64,000 nucleotides of DNA from Escherichia phage ECML-183-2. Of this stretch, positions 12,415 through 53,877 are shown piece after piece (the stretch's first letter is position 1; each line of letters begins with the position of its first letter). Position numbers and translations under genes: made by a program. Under the pieces are notes generated by a model. That model saw only the letters and a list, made by a program, of their open reading frames with translations. It searched no databases and had not been told where the DNA came from. The DNA lies in the sequence record OL631481.1. One strand, 5' to 3'.

Positions 12415-13356
12415 ATGGTGTTAATTGGTAGCCGTGCATTACAAATTCATGCTATGGACATGGGAAAAGACTTGTATCGCCCTTGTGTAGATTTAGATTA
12501 CCTGTGTACAGAACAAGAGTGGGAAGAATTATCAAAAATGTTCTCTCAAGATGAGTTTGTTGAACTTGTAGAACGTAAAGGGAACAAGGGCCATGTCAAA
12601 ATGATAGCTGGTGCACATTTGGAATACGATATTGCTTCTCAAGGAGATAGCACAGAAGCTTTGATTAGTTATTGTGAAGATTCTGATGATGTTCGTCGAA
12701 CTTACGCTGGACACGTTGTTGCTCCTTTAGATGTGCTCTACCTTCTTAAAATGAGTCATCGTTTTAAAAAGGATAGTCCTCACTTCTTTAAAACTATGAA
12801 AGATATTCATTTCATGCGATCACTAGGCGCAAAGATCCCAGAAAATCTTAAGAGTGTTTACGAGTTGCGTGAGAAAGAAACATACACTTACTCTCATCCA
12901 AACTTAAACGTGAGAAGTAAAGATTTCTTTAAAGGTGATGAGGTTCCGTATGTTTATGATCATGATTCTATCCATGAAGCAATCGCGGTAATGGATGCTC
13001 CGGCATATAAATCTTATATGAAAGATGGAAGTGAAGTTATGACCAGCAAAGAAAAGTTTTTTGCTCAACCAAAACATGTGCGCCTGTTAGGTGTTTATGA
13101 AGAAGCGTGTGTTTTGGCTTTGGAACGTTCACAAATTCCTTTCGGTGGAGAGATCGGAGGTCCAACCCCTAAGCAAAGTTTTATAATGGCTTTATCTAAA
13201 GTCTGCACATCCATCACTAGTGGTTGGTTTAGGGAATATGCTTGGGAAAACTTTTATGTTGTTATTAAGCTATATGAAAACATGGGCGAAAACGACTATG
13301 TTGAACGTTTTAAAGCTAATCAACATGTAGTAAAGCCTTTTGAAGGAGGTTATTAA
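12415..13356 (+). CDS. hypothetical protein (313 aa), possible nucleotidyltransferase-like N-terminus
   Basis: N-terminal GS ... DLD segment loosely resembles pol-beta-type NTase motif but spacing atypical. Confidence 0.5.
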   Translation: MVLIGSRALQIHAMDMGKDLYRPCVDLDYLCTEQEWEELSKMFSQDEFVELVERKGNKGHVKMIAGAHLEYDIASQGDSTEALISYCEDSDDVRRTYAGHVVAPLDVLYLLKMSHRFKKDSPHFFKTMKDIHFMRSLGAKIPENLKSVYELREKETYTYSHPNLNVRSKDFFKGDEVPYVYDHDSIHEAIAVMDAPAYKSYMKDGSEVMTSKEKFFAQPKHVRLLGVYEEACVLALERSQIPFGGEIGGPTPKQSFIMALSKVCTSITSGWFREYAWENFYVVIKLYENMGENDYVERFKANQHVVKPFEGGY

Positions 13357-16308: not shown

Positions 16309-17124
16309 ATGCCGCGTAGAGTCATATTCATAACTGGCGCAGGACTATCTGTGGATAGCGGTATCCCAGCTTTTAGAACAGATACTTCTTCAGGGGAGGC
16401 GTTATGGTCTTCTTATAATCTTTCTGAAGTCTGTGACATTTTCAACTTCCGTGACGGTTATCAGCAAGAACAAGGTATTCTGGATGCTATGGGCGGTTTA
16501 GATGCGGAAGGATATAACCTCTACCGTAAAACTCACGACTTTTACAATAAACGTCGCGCGGAATTAGAGAAAGTTGACCCGAATCCGGCACATCTTCAGA
16601 TTGGGGAATGGTTCAAAAAACATGGTGCAGAAAAGATTATTAACATCACTACTAACGTTGATGACCTCCTTGAACGAGCAGGAGTAGATAGGGAAGAAGT
16701 GCTACATGTGCATGGTTTTCTTCCTGAAATTACTTTTCAAAGAAAAGCTGGACAACCTACAATTGTAAAAGATGTTGGTTATCAAGCCATAGATGTAGAT
16801 GACTACCATTATGTAAAACCTAATGTAATCTTCTTTGGGGAAGCTGCTCCACTTTACACAGATATGTATCATATTTTTGATACACTGACGGCTCAAGATA
16901 TGGTTATCGTTGTAGGCTGCTCTAACCAAGTAATCAACTTCAACTGGGAACTCTTCCCTGCCCTGAATATTGGGGTTAAGATGGTTGTAGTTAACCCAGG
17001 TTTGAATTTTGTAGAACAAACTCTCTACGAAGAACGTGGAGTGCTTGTCTACCGAGAGAAAGCAGGAACAGTCTTCAGTGATGAAGGCTTTATCAAAATG
17101 GTTGAAGACCATTTAAACAAATAA
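16309..17124 (+). CDS. Sir2-family (sirtuin-like) NAD+-dependent protein, no zinc-ribbon
   Basis: GAGLSVDSGIPAFR, TTNVDDLLERAG, HG, VIFFGE, VVGCS motifs; the CxxC..CxxC Zn module is absent. Confidence 0.8.
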   Translation: MPRRVIFITGAGLSVDSGIPAFRTDTSSGEALWSSYNLSEVCDIFNFRDGYQQEQGILDAMGGLDAEGYNLYRKTHDFYNKRRAELEKVDPNPAHLQIGEWFKKHGAEKIINITTNVDDLLERAGVDREEVLHVHGFLPEITFQRKAGQPTIVKDVGYQAIDVDDYHYVKPNVIFFGEAAPLYTDMYHIFDTLTAQDMVIVVGCSNQVINFNWELFPALNIGVKMVVVNPGLNFVEQTLYEERGVLVYREKAGTVFSDEGFIKMVEDHLNK

Positions 17125-39124: not shown

Positions 39125-39295
39125 TTACTCTTCATCGTCGCCGTTATAGTATTCAATGCCGTTTTCATCGGTTACGGTGATGTTAACGCCACCGATAGCA
39201 ACACGATCACGGGCAAACGTCATAGCTTCATTTAAATCTTCAGACCAAAAAATATTGTGACCTTTGCGCGATACATAAAACATAGTCGGGATCAT
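39125..39295 (-). CDS. hypothetical protein (56 aa)
   Basis: Track ORF trimmed to internal ATG; GC hairpin 39097-39116 downstream. Confidence 0.45.
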   Translation of the reverse strand: MIPTMFYVSRKGHNIFWSEDLNEAMTFARDRVAIGGVNITVTDENGIEYYNGDDEE

Positions 39296-39318
39296 GATTT
39301 GTTTCTCTTCTGTTGTGA

Positions 39319-39379
39319 GCGGTGGACCATTCCGCCGCCCTATGTGGTAAACTTTACTACGTTGTTTGCCTGTTGTCAA
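39319..39379 (-). promoter_or_regulatory. PeSL-like cassette
   Basis: rc: TTGACA-17-TAAAGT then GGCGG-loop-CCGCC hairpin. Confidence 0.5.
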
Positions 39380-39380
39380 A

Positions 39381-39665
39381 TTATTTTTTAATGTTTTGCC
39401 CTACAAAATTGATCACTTCCTTAAGCTGTCTCTCTGTCATGATCGTACCTGGTAACTCTTCTTTAATTTCTTCCGGTAAATAGATATTACCGCGCCAGGT
39501 TAACAAACAACCGTTTTGATCTTCGCAGATAGAATAAGAAAACATCCACTCGCAATCATTTTCAAGCTCCCAAAAACACAAAAAGTCTTCTTTCCCTAAG
39601 TTTTCAACGGTTAAACATAATCCGCGACGTGCTGCATAATTAGTCAGGCTTTTTGTGATTTTCAT
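39381..39665 (-). CDS. hypothetical protein (94 aa)
   Basis: Track ORF trimmed to internal ATG. Confidence 0.5.
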   Translation of the reverse strand: MKITKSLTNYAARRGLCLTVENLGKEDFLCFWELENDCEWMFSYSICEDQNGCLLTWRGNIYLPEEIKEELPGTIMTERQLKEVINFVGQNIKK

Positions 39666-39686
39666 GATTTTTCTCTCTTCTTGTGA

Positions 39687-39742
39687 GCGGCACCATTGCC
39701 GCCCTACAAGATACATATTATCAGACTAGGCGGACTTGTCAA
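39687..39742 (-). promoter_or_regulatory. PeSL-like cassette
   Basis: rc: TTGACA-16-TAATAT then GCGGCA-ATGG-TGCCGC hairpin. Confidence 0.55.
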
Positions 39743-45559: not shown

Positions 45560-45832
45560 TTAAAGCAAAAACGCTACATCTTGCGCTTTTAGTGTAGTAT
45601 CAACCATTTTCGGGCTTTTATAATCAACAAAGCGCGCGGTTTTTTCAATAGCGAAACCGAGATAATCTTGTTTATTGAATTTACATTCTTTCTTAAATGT
45701 TTCCCGCGCCACGGTGATCGCTGCGTCCAGGGATAAACGCCCGTCAATGTTGATATTTGCGAAAGATCCGCCACCGCTCATAGGTTTACCAGTGGTGCCA
45801 GCTACGATCATTGTTGCGCTATATGATGCCAT
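45560..45832 (-). CDS. hypothetical protein (90 aa)
   Basis: Track ORF trimmed to internal ATG. Confidence 0.5.
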   Translation of the reverse strand: MASYSATMIVAGTTGKPMSGGGSFANINIDGRLSLDAAITVARETFKKECKFNKQDYLGFAIEKTARFVDYKSPKMVDTTLKAQDVAFLL

Positions 45833-45857
45833 GATTATAATCTCTCTTCTGTTGTGA

Positions 45858-45918
45858 GCGGCTGGACCATTCCGCCGCCCTATGTGATACATCTTATCAG
45901 GTTGTTGTTTGTTGTCAA
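45858..45918 (-). promoter_or_regulatory. PeSL-like cassette
   Basis: rc: TTGACA-16-TAAGAT then GGCGG-loop-CCGCC hairpin. Confidence 0.55.
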
Positions 45919-45924
45919 TACTTT

Positions 45925-46122
45925 TTATTCTATTCCTGCAATTTGATTAACGCGCTTGCATTTTGTAGCGTGCTGGTCTTCTGTAATGACTCCCATTTCT
46001 AACAGGGAATCAATGAAAGATAAAACCGTTTCATGATCATCCTGGGGATGACTGAACTCAGTAAAACCGTTTACCACGACGCTGATTTGTCCTGCTTTCG
46101 CTACTATGTGCAATGTTGCCAT
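45925..46122 (-). CDS. hypothetical protein (65 aa)
   Basis: Track ORF trimmed to internal ATG with GGAG RBS. Confidence 0.5.
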   Translation of the reverse strand: MATLHIVAKAGQISVVVNGFTEFSHPQDDHETVLSFIDSLLEMGVITEDQHATKCKRVNQIAGIE

Positions 46123-46143
46123 GATTTTAACTCCAAATAATGA

Positions 46144-46200
46144 GCGGCACCATTGCCGCCCTACGTGGTAAATATTATGCCGCCACCTGGCGAACGTCAA
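46144..46200 (-). promoter_or_regulatory. PeSL-like cassette (last/upstream-most of array)
   Basis: rc: TTGACG-17-TAATAT then GCGGCA-ATGG-TGCCGC hairpin 46144-46159. Confidence 0.55.
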
Positions 46201-46309: not shown

Positions 46310-46576
46310 ATGACAAATACTACATTACACCTTATGCACTCATTGGGCTGGCAAGGCGGCACGGTGCACCAGGTAGCAAGCGCAACGGGCTTAAAGGTTG
46401 AAACAGTTCTCAACCTGGGCGATCATAAGGTGGAAGAAATAGATCATTTTGATACGTTCGCAAATGGTTATCTATGGGCTTGCAGTGGCGGCGGGGAAAG
46501 CAAGATACCACCAGGGGCGCGGGGCGATATGTATTTTTGGTTAGGTGTCCTATCCTGGCAAGAAAACAAAAAATAA
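46310..46576 (+). CDS. hypothetical protein (88 aa) in GC-rich island
   Basis: Only plus-strand ORF in the minus block; weak RBS; local composition unlike surrounding DNA. Confidence 0.3.
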   Translation: MTNTTLHLMHSLGWQGGTVHQVASATGLKVETVLNLGDHKVEEIDHFDTFANGYLWACSGGGESKIPPGARGDMYFWLGVLSWQENKK

Positions 46577-46578
46577 TC

Positions 46579-46607
46579 TTGACAAGCCCAGGGATCGGGC
46601 TTATACT
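46579..46607 (+). promoter_or_regulatory. sigma70-type promoter of unknown target
   Basis: TTGACA-17-TATACT; downstream ~100 nt GC-rich with long-range complementarity, no ORF. Confidence 0.4.
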
Positions 46608-46838
46608 GTTTTACATACAGAAGAGGAAGCGCCACCCCACGGCGTAAAGGCGGGGCTAACATACCAGGGGGGGCACTGGTTGGAAGGTTGATCGCCGGTA
46701 GGCTGGGCGCTATATATTTGTAAAGAAATGTAAAGATAAAATAATCGCTTGCTTTCCTGGCTGGATCTGTTATTCTTATTACATGGCGAGGGGACACGGG
46801 AGCGCGAGACAAACACCGCCCCTGCGCGTCATTCTCTA

Positions 46839-46858
46839 AATGAGAATGATTATCATTT
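46839..46858. promoter_or_regulatory. Fur-box-like site
   Basis: aatgagaatgattatcattt; ~15/17 match to TGATAATGATAATCATT. Confidence 0.3.
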
Positions 46859-46898
46859 ACCTTATCAAATAAGAATCAATCTCATTTATAAACCTAAA

Positions 46899-46919
46899 TG
46901 CGAATCATTATCATTTGCA
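46899..46919. promoter_or_regulatory. Fur-box-like palindrome
   Basis: tgcgaatcattatcatttgca; contains AATCATTATCA. Confidence 0.3.
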
Positions 46920-46967
46920 TTTCCATATGAGAACTCTTCTCATTCCCATCTGCATAAATTTTTGTAA

Positions 46968-47146
46968 ACTTTAAATTTTGCTTTTGTACTTTCATTTTTG
47001 TAAAAGCAAAAAAACTTTAAATACTGTGGGCGCGCAAAATTTTTAAAATTTTCCTTGACTTTTGAGTTTTGTTTTGTATCTAACATTTTAAGATAATTTT
47101 CCTAAACTTTAAATTTTGGTTTTCAACTTTCACTTTTGTAAATTCT
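46968..47146. repeat. AT-rich direct repeats (two ~40-bp units) with inverted AAACTTTAAA/TTTAAAGTTT elements
   Basis: aaactttaaattttgcttttgtactttcatttttgtaaa vs aaactttaaattttggttttcaactttcacttttgtaaa. Confidence 0.6.
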
Positions 47147-47303
47147 TAAAAAGTTTAAATAATTTGAGGGATTTTTGAGATAATAGGTAGTGGGAATTTG
47201 AGATAACCTTTAATCTTATTAGTAGACCTTCAGGAACCCACTCAGATCGAATCCTAGTGATGCAAACTGAAAAAGACAAGGGTTTGTATAGGACAAAATA
47301 ACA

Positions 47304-47328
47304 GGCTCTCTACGGTGCTGTAGGAGCC
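47304..47328. terminator. hairpin terminator downstream of NADAR gene
   Basis: GGCTC ... GAGCC stem with T-rich tracts on both strands. Confidence 0.45.
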
Positions 47329-47384
47329 TTATTTCTGTGCTACAAAGTGACACCTTTGTTCTAAAAATGAAAAAAGTTAAAATA

Positions 47385-47927
47385 TCACAAATATCGTCTT
47401 TGCGGTATTTTGTCTGGGAAAAGTATTTCGATCAGTTTGTTATGATATTTACCTAAAAGATTTTGCCCTTTCCAGTTGACCGGATTTAGCACCCCTGGTT
47501 CATACATTCCCATTCCAATACCGTAAACCTTATCGTAAGGACTTGCTTCAACAAACGTTTTGTATTGGTAAAGGTGTAAGTCTGCATACAAATCTGGATT
47601 CTGTACATATTTCAAGCATAAACCTCGCATAACAATACGCTCACGGTTCTCTTCCCATACGTTGTTATCAAAATCCGACACTGCCCTACCCATACGTTTG
47701 TAATAAGCTTGAATCTTCTCATCTTTCCGTATCAAACTATGAGTCAGAATAGCCTGTGCAGTGTTGTGATCATTAAAAAGCAAAGCTTTACGCCACATTA
47801 TGTATTGTTCGACACAATTAAATGTCTGATTGTAACCTGGTTCGGTTTCTGTAAAGGGTGCAATATACCAATTACTAAAAACATCTTTATGTGAAAAGAA
47901 GAATACATAATCATCAGTTATTCGCAT
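47385..47927 (-). CDS. NADAR-domain (YbiA-like) protein
   Basis: 180 aa; FSNWY, EQYIMWRKA, WEENRERIVMRGL..KY.QNP.L, VEASPYD, GQNLLGK colinear with E. coli YbiA. Confidence 0.75.
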   Translation of the reverse strand: MRITDDYVFFFSHKDVFSNWYIAPFTETEPGYNQTFNCVEQYIMWRKALLFNDHNTAQAILTHSLIRKDEKIQAYYKRMGRAVSDFDNNVWEENRERIVMRGLCLKYVQNPDLYADLHLYQYKTFVEASPYDKVYGIGMGMYEPGVLNPVNWKGQNLLGKYHNKLIEILFPDKIPQRRYL

Positions 47928-48138
47928 TTTTCATACTCTCCAAAATTTCACGTTGCCCTTGCTGATAGGCTTTCATCAGAACTACTTTAAGGTTTGTCTC
48001 CAAGAGGTCTTCATTGTAATTATACCGCTCCACAACATATGTCAATTCATCATAAAGATGAAGAACGGGGTAGAATACAGGGTTATCTGCTAAACGTGCC
48101 ATAGTTTCTCCTTTGTTAATCCATCCACCAGTAGCCAT
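47914..48138 (-). CDS. hypothetical protein (74 aa)
   Basis: ORF track. Confidence 0.45.
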   Translation of the reverse strand: MATGGWINKGETMARLADNPVFYPVLHLYDELTYVVERYNYNEDLLETNLKVVLMKAYQQGQREILESMKNANN

Positions 48139-48481
48139 AAACTGCGTCTGCGTCGATGAGTTTGTGTTTGTTGTTCCGCATGTAGTCTAAGATAAGTAGA
48201 CGTTTATTGTATCTGGAGAGATTATGACCCTCTTTTCCGCCATAGTCAAAATATTTTGCAAGATCTTTACACTCAAACAAAATCAGTTCGGGAGTTTCTT
48301 CACACTGGTCTGTCTGGTACACTTGACGAATGATCATGTATACATCGTCGTCTTCCGCTAAATGCTCTACTGGTCCACATCCAGCAGGAACAAATTCATA
48401 GTCCCATCTGATCAGATGTTTCTCTACTGCTTCAAAGAAGTCCATTCTTTCGTTGCGCATAATTTGAACGTCAACTAACAT
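48116..48481 (-). CDS. hypothetical protein (121 aa)
   Basis: ORF track. Confidence 0.45.
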   Translation of the reverse strand: MLVDVQIMRNERMDFFEAVEKHLIRWDYEFVPAGCGPVEHLAEDDDVYMIIRQVYQTDQCEETPELILFECKDLAKYFDYGGKEGHNLSRYNKRLLILDYMRNNKHKLIDADAVYGYWWMD

Positions 48482-49659
48482 GTTTCCTCCTGTAATGTTC
48501 CACCATAAAGTTTATAAATGTTTTGTATTGATGCCATGCAAGATAACTCCGCTGTCTCTGTGTAGCCATCTGGCATAGCATATTTGCTCACTGCTTCCGT
48601 GTGAAGGACACGCTTACAACGCTTTTCTGCATCTTTGCATTGCTTCACAGTAGGGAAGTGCCACACTTGGCCCTGTTTCATAGTAAACACATTACGACTA
48701 TTTTGTTCTTTGATACGGCGATTACTATTATTAGCAATACCAAACTTCAGTGCACAGATAATATCTTGCTCATCGTAAATATAATTAATGTAGGCTTGTT
48801 GTTGATTTTTGTTAGCACACTGCGGACAACCTTGTCCTATGTTTAAAAGGTTGTTTGCAGTTCCTTTTTGTTCCCCATGACTCTTACATACGTATTTAAA
48901 CTTACCTATAGAAGATGGTTTGGTAATCCATCCTATCCAAACATACCCTTTCTTTTCTATTTTCTTTCTTACTTTATACGTAATCTGTTCCGCTGTATAC
49001 CTATAAGATGCAGAGCAACGGCAGGGTAAGTGTCCATATTTAAGATTGCTACGCGTCATATAAAACTTACCATCACATAGTCCAGCTTTAACATATTCAT
49101 CATGAGAACAAACAGGACACTGAACCATCCATACTGGATCACACCCTTTACGTTCCCCCGTGTTGGTGAAAATAGTGCCTTCCTTAAACTTCCCTGTAGA
49201 AAAGAAATCTGCAATATGTTGATCGTCGGGTATTGTTTGTGACCTCCTTGTGTTCTCATACCTACATATAAGACAACCACTGCCATGTTTAAAACTATCA
49301 AAACTACATGTATTCCATTCATGACCATACCTACAACGTAGCATCATTTTCGTACGCGCACCTTTAAACGGTTCTACGATACCTATGATGGTAATCCCCT
49401 TAGCTTCCGCTATTGGTTTACATTCAGTAAGGTATGTTTTTAAATCTTTAATTTGACCTGCACACATAGGACAACCACTACCACGTTTAAAACTGTTAAT
49501 ACTTGTAGTATCCCATTTATAACCACAATGACACAACAAATCAAGTTTTGTATTAACCCCTTTCCATTCTCCCGTCCATCCTAAGATTTGGATTTGCTTA
49601 CTCTCTGCTATTGGTTGACACTCTTCTTTATATTGTTCCCATGATTTTGGTGCTGCCAT
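48475..49659 (-). CDS. T5orf172 (GIY-YIG-like) domain protein with four N-terminal CxxC zinc-ribbon repeats
   Basis: Repeated W..F..GSGCP.C units; C-terminal YINYIYDEQD..KFGIANN..RR ... GYTETAEL. Confidence 0.5.
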   Translation of the reverse strand: MAAPKSWEQYKEECQPIAESKQIQILGWTGEWKGVNTKLDLLCHCGYKWDTTSINSFKRGSGCPMCAGQIKDLKTYLTECKPIAEAKGITIIGIVEPFKGARTKMMLRCRYGHEWNTCSFDSFKHGSGCLICRYENTRRSQTIPDDQHIADFFSTGKFKEGTIFTNTGERKGCDPVWMVQCPVCSHDEYVKAGLCDGKFYMTRSNLKYGHLPCRCSASYRYTAEQITYKVRKKIEKKGYVWIGWITKPSSIGKFKYVCKSHGEQKGTANNLLNIGQGCPQCANKNQQQAYINYIYDEQDIICALKFGIANNSNRRIKEQNSRNVFTMKQGQVWHFPTVKQCKDAEKRCKRVLHTEAVSKYAMPDGYTETAELSCMASIQNIYKLYGGTLQEETC

Positions 49660-53433: not shown

Positions 53434-53877
53434 ATGCAAAACATCCAAAACATCAAACTGACTTGGCCCGAAGCTAAAGAAGCAATGAAGGAAGGTAGAC
53501 GTGTTGAGCACCGCCATTTTTGTGGTGGCGAATGGTTTGAGATGCGAGATGGTGTTATTCTCGACGAACAAGGTTATAACATGGAAACTTGGTTCAGAGG
53601 GGAAGCTTGGCAGGAAGAGGGTTGGTCTGTAATTGAAAAAGAAGACAGTAAGGAAGAAGGCGTGTTGTCTAATGTAGAACGCGAGATGAGGGAAACAAAG
53701 ATACCTGCTTTGGATTTTGTATACCTGGAAGAACTTGTGGCAGCATCTTTTGTAGCAGGAAACCTTTGGAATACACCTGTTAGCCGACTGGAGAACCAAA
53801 ATAACCCGTCTACTCGTAATCACAAGCTTTATAAGGGTAAAGGTCACAACAAATTAAAGAAAGGAAAGAAGAAATGA
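53434..53877 (+). CDS. DUF2829-like protein (Tad2-like candidate) with Lys-rich C-terminal tail
   Basis: N-terminal ~65 aa W.EAKEAMKEGRRV ... GEAWQEEGWSVIE resembles DUF2829 pattern; remainder unassigned. Confidence 0.4.
   Translation: MQNIQNIKLTWPEAKEAMKEGRRVEHRHFCGGEWFEMRDGVILDEQGYNMETWFRGEAWQEEGWSVIEKEDSKEEGVLSNVEREMRETKIPALDFVYLEELVAASFVAGNLWNTPVSRLENQNNPSTRNHKLYKGKGHNKLKKGKKK

Follow-up and report, generated by a model that had tools for sequence, protein, structure and literature searches.

A gene on the minus strand of a 64,000-nucleotide stretch of DNA from Escherichia phage ECML-183-2 (OL631481.1; here called the window) probably specifies an ADP-ribosylglycohydrolase of the NADAR type that stands alone (‘orphan antitoxin-like’), which would be the Phapecoctavirus ortholog of AdfN-Bas60 and would act against DarTG1. 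NADARs are known to hydrolyse guanine-ADPr (PMC11543638), and the phage members, termed AdfN, strip ADP-ribose from DarT1-modified DNA (Johannesman et al. 2025, PMC11825919). For the protein described here, the enzymatic activity, the guanine specificity and the anti-DarTG1 role are predicted from its sequence. The original prediction had regarded the gene as a plausible phage counter-measure to DarT-like toxins. This reading is now supported, as a prediction by orthology, through 58% identity, synteny and catalytic residues in common with AdfN-Bas60.

It had also been proposed that the protein carries NADAR/YbiA signatures along its length, and this was borne out when the suggested profile search was run. 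Residues 11-161 were aligned with positions 3-154 of the 163 in the Pfam profile PF08719 (NADAR, DUF1768), at 119.9 bits and E 1.6e-34, where the gathering cut-off is 35.1 bits. The 180-aa protein further matches PHROG 1017, a family with no function attached to it, at E 4.9e-51. An AlphaFold2 model of the protein has the NADAR fold, with a pLDDT of 95.3 and a pTM of 0.89. In a Foldseek search with this model, the best match was 8bau, the ADP-ribose-bound NADAR of Phytophthora (TM 0.79, E 1e-9), along with YbiA (2b3w, TM 0.68), and no other PDB entry was matched at E < 0.001. The same solved structure is reached by sequence at E 4e-15, and by the profile of the NADAR homolog family at 3e-35. 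These matches are much stronger than chance would give. The identity of the window protein is 58% to the Bas60 protein, 36% to PnNADAR, 29% to YbiA and 18% to T4 gp30.3.

Membership in other NADAR groups was also considered. The model of the anti-phage NADAR protein DS-32 (NF053876) gave 16.6 bits, below its cut-off of 240. In the PADLOC scan of the window NADAR, there was no DarG match, and PDC-M42C alone was reported. The DarG1 group was tried and set aside: with E values of up to 10 allowed, the NADAR family profile reached 8bau and YbiA, and the DarT1-linked NADARs of the PDB were not matched.

The residues that carry the reaction are in place. In PnNADAR, the mechanistic set comprises E43, K50, R79, W89, R93, E125 and D130 (Schuller et al., PMC11543638). 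By alignment, and with the offset of +2 in the chain numbering of 8bau allowed for, the equivalents in the window protein are E40, K47, R81, W91, R95, E127 and D132. In the NADAR of E. coli C7, the catalytic glutamate and lysine, E88 and K95, are equivalent to E43 and K50 of PnNADAR, and K115 (Pn K75) is a lysine that catalysis can do without, though DarT1 rescue in cells depends on it (PMC11543638). The window protein has K77 at this last position. Across an alignment of 82 homologs, there is no exception at E40, K47, W91, E127 or D132, and conservation reaches at least 90% at R81 and K77. Seven Phapecoctavirus orthologs do not vary at any of the eight positions (E40, K47, K77, R81, W91, R95, E127 and D132). 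At residue 43, the window allele has Ile, where at least 90% of the 82 homologs have Met.

The position equivalent to C7 K115 deserves separate attention. It is Lys in the window protein and in the Bas60 protein, Ala in YbiA and Gln in T4 gp30.3. It is known that G-ADPr is hydrolysed in vitro by both YbiA and gp30.3 of T4, and that neither gives DarT1 rescue in uninfected cells (PMC11125620). We infer that this lysine may parallel which NADARs can rescue cells from DarT1 unaided. By analogy with YbiA and T4 gp30.3, activity of a NADAR in vitro would be no guarantee of rescue in the cell.

The features of the locus, and others in the window, are collected in Table 1.

Table 1. Features of the window, in order of position
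Feature	Position	Strand	Remarks
Gene for DUF7277 + DUF7275 (253 bits) protein	12415-13356	+	313 aa; recently defined domains
Sir2-family gene	16309..17124	+	PF02146, 76.5 bits; annotated in nepoznato too
Small genes with pseudo-peptide starts	39125-39379, 39381-39716, 45560-45892, 45925-46200	-	near-identical pseudo-peptides before internal Met
Gene-free gap	46577-47384		~800 nt; between convergent genes (NADAR stop / ORF 46310..46576 +)
GC-rich block in gap	~46590-46810		~210 nt
Iteron-like repeats in gap	46836-46944		29-nt spacing (ATGAGAATCATT...)
AT-rich direct repeats in gap	46957-47028, 47095-47166		72 nt x2
Intrinsic-terminator-like hairpin	47293..47328	-	GGCUCCUACAGCACCGUAGAGAGCC then UGUUAUUUUGU; 57 nt past NADAR stop
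NADAR-domain CDS	47385..47927	-	180 aa; predicted ADP-ribosyl-guanine glycohydrolase
Small ORF	47914..48138	-	no Pfam family match
Shine-Dalgarno GGAGAG	47936..47941	-	8 nt 5' of NADAR ATG (read from sequence)
Small ORF	48116..48481	-	no Pfam family match
CapR-repeat/treble-clef zinc-finger protein	48475..49659	-	394 aa; labelled ‘endonuclease’ in relatives

According to the ORF list and the sequence, the NADAR reading frame starts with the ATG at 47925-47927 and ends with the TGA at 47385-47387. Its start codon lies within a 14-nt overlap with the 3' end of the adjacent small ORF, which suggests that the two may be translationally coupled. The upstream genes, up to and including the CapR gene, overlap end to end and are presumably co-transcribed. 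The RNA of 47280-47390(-) folds with z = -4.83 against shuffles, and the phAPEC8 record has a terminator annotated at the place equivalent to the hairpin. The transcription unit of the NADAR gene is probably closed by this terminator-like structure. Among seven Phapecoctavirus alleles of the gene, dN/dS ranges from 0.02 to 0.20 (Nei-Gojobori), and therefore the gene is maintained by purifying selection. In the phage TSP7_1, the stop of the ortholog comes three codons early.

The neighbours of the NADAR gene are an AAA ATPase, the CapR/zinc-finger protein and the two small ORFs, so the gene can be regarded as an orphan. In a Pfam search of the ORFs next to it, no ADP-ribosyltransferase (ART) domain was found, and there is no DarT nearby. 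The CapR protein has four CapR repeats (PF21817, 121.6 bits) and a treble-clef zinc finger (PF14311, DUF4379). Its length differs among relatives, being 330 aa in JLBYU50 and 467 aa in Bas60.

The gap beyond the NADAR stop has several features of its own. The GC-rich block is ~90-97% identical to that of Justusliebigvirus, while the NADARs that flank it are only 58% identical. This block occurs once in each of 143 phage records and is mostly unannotated; in phAPEC8, a dubious Pro-rich ORF, gp009, is called in it. Scans of the window and the gap for tRNAs and Rfam families gave no match, and the conserved block folded no better than shuffles on either strand (z ~0). A replication origin, or else a DNA element with a regulatory role, may lie here. 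Elsewhere in the window, the longest-ORF translations of some small minus-strand genes begin with pseudo-peptides such as YHIGRRNGP..., YHVGRQWCRS... and YLVGRQWCRS... Their repetition points to a candidate regulatory DNA element, repeated 5' of the true starts, and 20-nt PHIRE promoters are annotated in phAPEC8 at places such as these.

Over the 5 kb around the NADAR gene, the identity is 97.6% with Escherichia phage nepoznato and 96.8% with phAPEC8, which assigns the window to Phapecoctavirus, in the subfamily Stephanstirmvirinae. The phage is thus a phAPEC8-like virulent E. coli myovirus, and the phAPEC8 ortholog of its NADAR gene is gp010, which carries the label ‘hypothetical protein’. 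A tblastn search with the NADAR protein found 719 places in 718 phage records, nearly always as a single copy, and copies at least 80% identical were present in 70 phage records. With a Justusliebigvirus gene as the query, a further ~56 phi92-like phages were found, with ~58% identity where sampled. In the relatives, the ortholog is variously called ‘GTP cyclohydrolase II’ (e.g. MW175890 80961-81494, PQ571307, OR352953 and OR525700), ‘YbiA-like N-glycosidase’ or ‘hypothetical protein’. According to a note in one such record, the first of these labels derives from COG3236 fusions, and it looks like a transfer from RibA-fused COG3236 proteins.

The functional case comes from the phi92-like phages. 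AdfN-Bas60 is the NADAR common to Bas60, Bas61 and Bas62, and it neutralises DarT1 in uninfected E. coli (PMC11825919). With it, plaquing of RB69, T5 and Bas25 on DarTG1 hosts is recovered, and T5 on a DarTG2 host is not restored (PMC11825919). Neutralisation of DarT1 together with phage rescue has been demonstrated only for the Bas60, Bas32 and T4 proteins (PMC11825919). The three phages Bas60-62 are phi92-like, now Justusliebigvirus, and belong to Stephanstirmvirinae, as does the window phage. One NADAR gene was found in each, namely bas60_0111 (QXV83846.1), bas61_0107 and bas62_0106. No second NADAR gene was found in Bas60, and bas60_0111 was therefore taken as AdfN-Bas60. The window protein is 58% identical to its product over the full length (E 4e-68). 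In both the relatives of the window and Bas60, the gene order is AAA-ATPase, CapR ‘endonuclease’, NADAR and then a long gene-free gap, and the order upstream of NADAR is identical in phAPEC8, nepoznato, JLBYU50 and Bas60. On the grounds of single copy, identity and common gene order, the window gene is the syntenic ortholog of bas60_0111.

A course of events can be proposed from this orthology. When the phage infects E. coli that bears DarTG1, DarT1 would move ADP-ribose from NAD+ to the N2 of guanine. The substrate would be single-stranded phage DNA, the replication of which would be blocked by the ADP-ribosylation. The phage NADAR would grip the ADP-ribose moiety through K47, R81, W91, R95 and D132, while E40 and E127 would hydrolyse the N-glycosidic bond between ribose and guanine. 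ADP-ribose would thereby be freed and the base restored, and replication could proceed. With K77 present, the window protein is predicted to act without other phage factors, as AdfN-Bas60 does and unlike T4 gp30.3 and YbiA.

It was also considered whether the protein is a NADAR hydrolase with another main target, such as RNA or cytidine that carries ADP-ribose, or what is made by some other ADP-ribosyltransferase defence or toxin (perhaps a system related to PDC-M42), with the reversal of DarT1 marks as a side activity. This reading is rather unlikely, and it is compatible with the anti-DarT1 reading, the two not being mutually exclusive. The window and Bas60 (L004:4001-4552) NADARs score ~118 bits on PDC-M42C, which PADLOC lists as part of a candidate defence system yet to be characterised, against 56 for YbiA. 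A Burkholderia homolog (L011:6001-6489) reaches 157 bits and adjoins LmuB/SMC-like (L011:8641-10962) and PLD/DrmC-like (L011:11508-12071) genes; however, other PDC-M42 components were not found in its scanned neighbours. The family profile misses the DarT1-linked NADAR structures, which fits the position given to AdfN-Bas60 among the ‘non-YbiA, non-DarG1’ bacterial NADARs (PMC11825919) and leaves room for additional or different natural targets. Some NADARs are reported also to remove cytidine-ADPr (PMC12945103), and the authors of the AdfN study speculate on other defences that ADP-ribosylate DNA or RNA (PMC11825919). Against these points, the sole tested ortholog neutralises DarT1 fully (PMC11825919), and no alternative toxin was identified.

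Variation next to the active site bears on the same question. Among the seven Phapecoctavirus alleles, 30 positions vary, and 23 of them lie in two stretches that adjoin the active site, residues 52-72 and 85-94; this patch can be counted in favour of another target. In codons 31-90, synonymous sites have reached saturation when the window is compared with phage ETEC-TG, which suggests that a mosaic segment beside the active site was probably acquired by recombination. Together with the 42% of residues that differ from AdfN-Bas60, the clustered variation could mean an altered substrate or toxin specificity. That the window NADAR is an orphan antitoxin captured from some ADP-ribosylating defence yet to be recognised, be it one directed at DNA, RNA or cytidine, seems quite unlikely. 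It is suggested by the fast-evolving patch and by the strong resemblance to PDC-M42C; if it were so, the patch at 52-72/85-94 would follow changes of toxin or of substrate as an arms race went on.

The anti-DarT1 reading also has to be set against a role in the phage’s own NAD/ADP-ribose chemistry, by which NADAR would erase marks written by the phage itself (e.g. by Sir2) or recycle ADP-ribose. The original prediction had counted three NAD/ADP-ribose genes in the window. The NADAR gene and the Sir2-family gene are real, the latter at the score given in Table 1, while the DUF2829-like gene was not confirmed in the ORFs tested. There was no DUF2829 match in 53434..53877, the most DUF2829-looking ORF, or in nine other ORFs at E values of up to 5, and none among precomputed Pfam labels on the ~10 kb upstream side of a 98%-identical copy. 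As a joint system, the trio was not supported, because the Sir2 gene is ~30 kb away in an oppositely oriented block, where it is not co-transcribed with NADAR. Homologs with 42-44% identity occur in jumbo-phage-like contexts on contigs of 328 kb and 355 kb (L013:6001-6480 and L016:6001-6480), with NAMPT/NAPRTase-like and phosphoribosyltransferase-like genes within ~5 kb, which suggests that genes for NAD salvage and ADP-ribose reversal may cluster in some large phages. However, no NAMPT, Prs, macrodomain or ART adjoins the window NADAR, no NADAR is known from experiment to act in this way, and a self-serving function of this sort appears very improbable.

Lastly, a housekeeping role like that of YbiA, as an N-glycosidase by which reactive intermediates of the riboflavin pathway are destroyed, is extremely doubtful for the protein. 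A closer match to such enzymes had been named beforehand as grounds for giving up the DarT reading. Formally this point was reached, as the window protein passes the NCBIfam riboflavin-intermediate N-glycosidase model TIGR02464 with 111.1 bits against a cut-off of 73.7; yet it is uninformative, since the Bas60 protein scores equally (109.4 bits) and the match does not discriminate function. With YbiA at 169.5 bits and T4 gp30.3 unmatched, what the model picks out is one broad half of the superfamily, the YbiA/PnNADAR-like one, and not a function, and it was dropped as a discriminator after the Bas60 control. It cannot separate housekeeping YbiA from anti-defence NADARs. The YbiA-type glutamate E127 and the riboflavin-type names given to several relatives speak for this role. 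On the other side, YbiA is the more distant relative at 29% identity, compared with PnNADAR and the Bas60 protein, and itself hydrolyses G-ADPr in vitro (PMC11125620), while the ‘GTP cyclohydrolase II’ name stems from the fusions mentioned above. The window protein stands alone at 180 aa, with neither a RibA/RibD fusion nor such a neighbourhood. The annotation of nepoznato has no riboflavin gene over the 66 kb that span the window, and the cellular and jumbo-phage-like homologs on long contigs lie beside neither rib genes nor an ART.

If the anti-DarTG1 assignment is right, the AdfN counter-defence would extend from the phi92-like phages to the whole phAPEC8-like genus, and phAPEC8-like phages are predicted to be insensitive to DarTG1. 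The close copies noted above place the gene in at least 70 sequenced phages, several of which are considered for therapy. The labels ‘hypothetical protein’, ‘GTP cyclohydrolase II’ and ‘YbiA-like N-glycosidase’ would be corrected accordingly by this assignment. Among the matches listed by a literature search, no paper joined phAPEC8 or Phapecoctavirus with DarTG, NADAR or AdfN.

The window protein can be compared with five known NADARs. DarG1 of E. coli C7 and Geobacter lovleyi has the same chemistry of guanine-ADPr hydrolysis, and an antitoxin logic without toxin binding. Unlike the window protein, it has an N-terminal extension, whereas the NADAR domain here begins at residue ~4-11 of 180; it has Asp at the third catalytic position (C7 D171) in place of Glu127; and it is encoded beside DarT1, which does not adjoin the window gene. 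YbiA has the fold and the Glu/Lys/Glu set in common, but with Ala at the K77 equivalent, an identity of less than a third and no rescue of cells from DarT1, and its gene shares a LexA-type operon with dinG and ybiB. AdfN-T4 (gp30.3) is likewise a phage NADAR against DarTG1, in which the E-x6-K Glu/Lys, G80/R81 and W91 are conserved. The T4 type differs in having His at the third acidic position, where the window protein keeps E127 and so falls outside the gp30.3 clade, and in having Gln for the K115-equivalent Lys, at 18% identity. Full activity of AdfN-T4 requires the T-even context, and gp30.3 has no TIGR02464 or PADLOC match.

The NADAR of Phytophthora nicotianae (8bau) is the best match of solved structure, with 36% identity in the aligned part, and all of its ADP-ribose-contacting residues are common to the window protein. 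It is a eukaryotic protein, though, and the window protein has an extra segment at ~62-70 and a Tyr (Y135) for Pn W133. The nearest counterpart is AdfN-Bas60 (bas60_0111). The two differ in genus (Justusliebigvirus as against Phapecoctavirus), in 42% of their residues, in the loop that precedes the catalytic Glu, where the pairwise alignment shows a deletion of 7 residues, and in the two extra small ORFs that the window has between the CapR and NADAR genes. Nevertheless, each is a single-copy orphan NADAR of a lytic E. coli myovirus in Stephanstirmvirinae, their scores on TIGR02464 and PDC-M42C are equal, and they have in common the catalytic set, a Glu as the third acidic residue and the Lys equivalent to K115.
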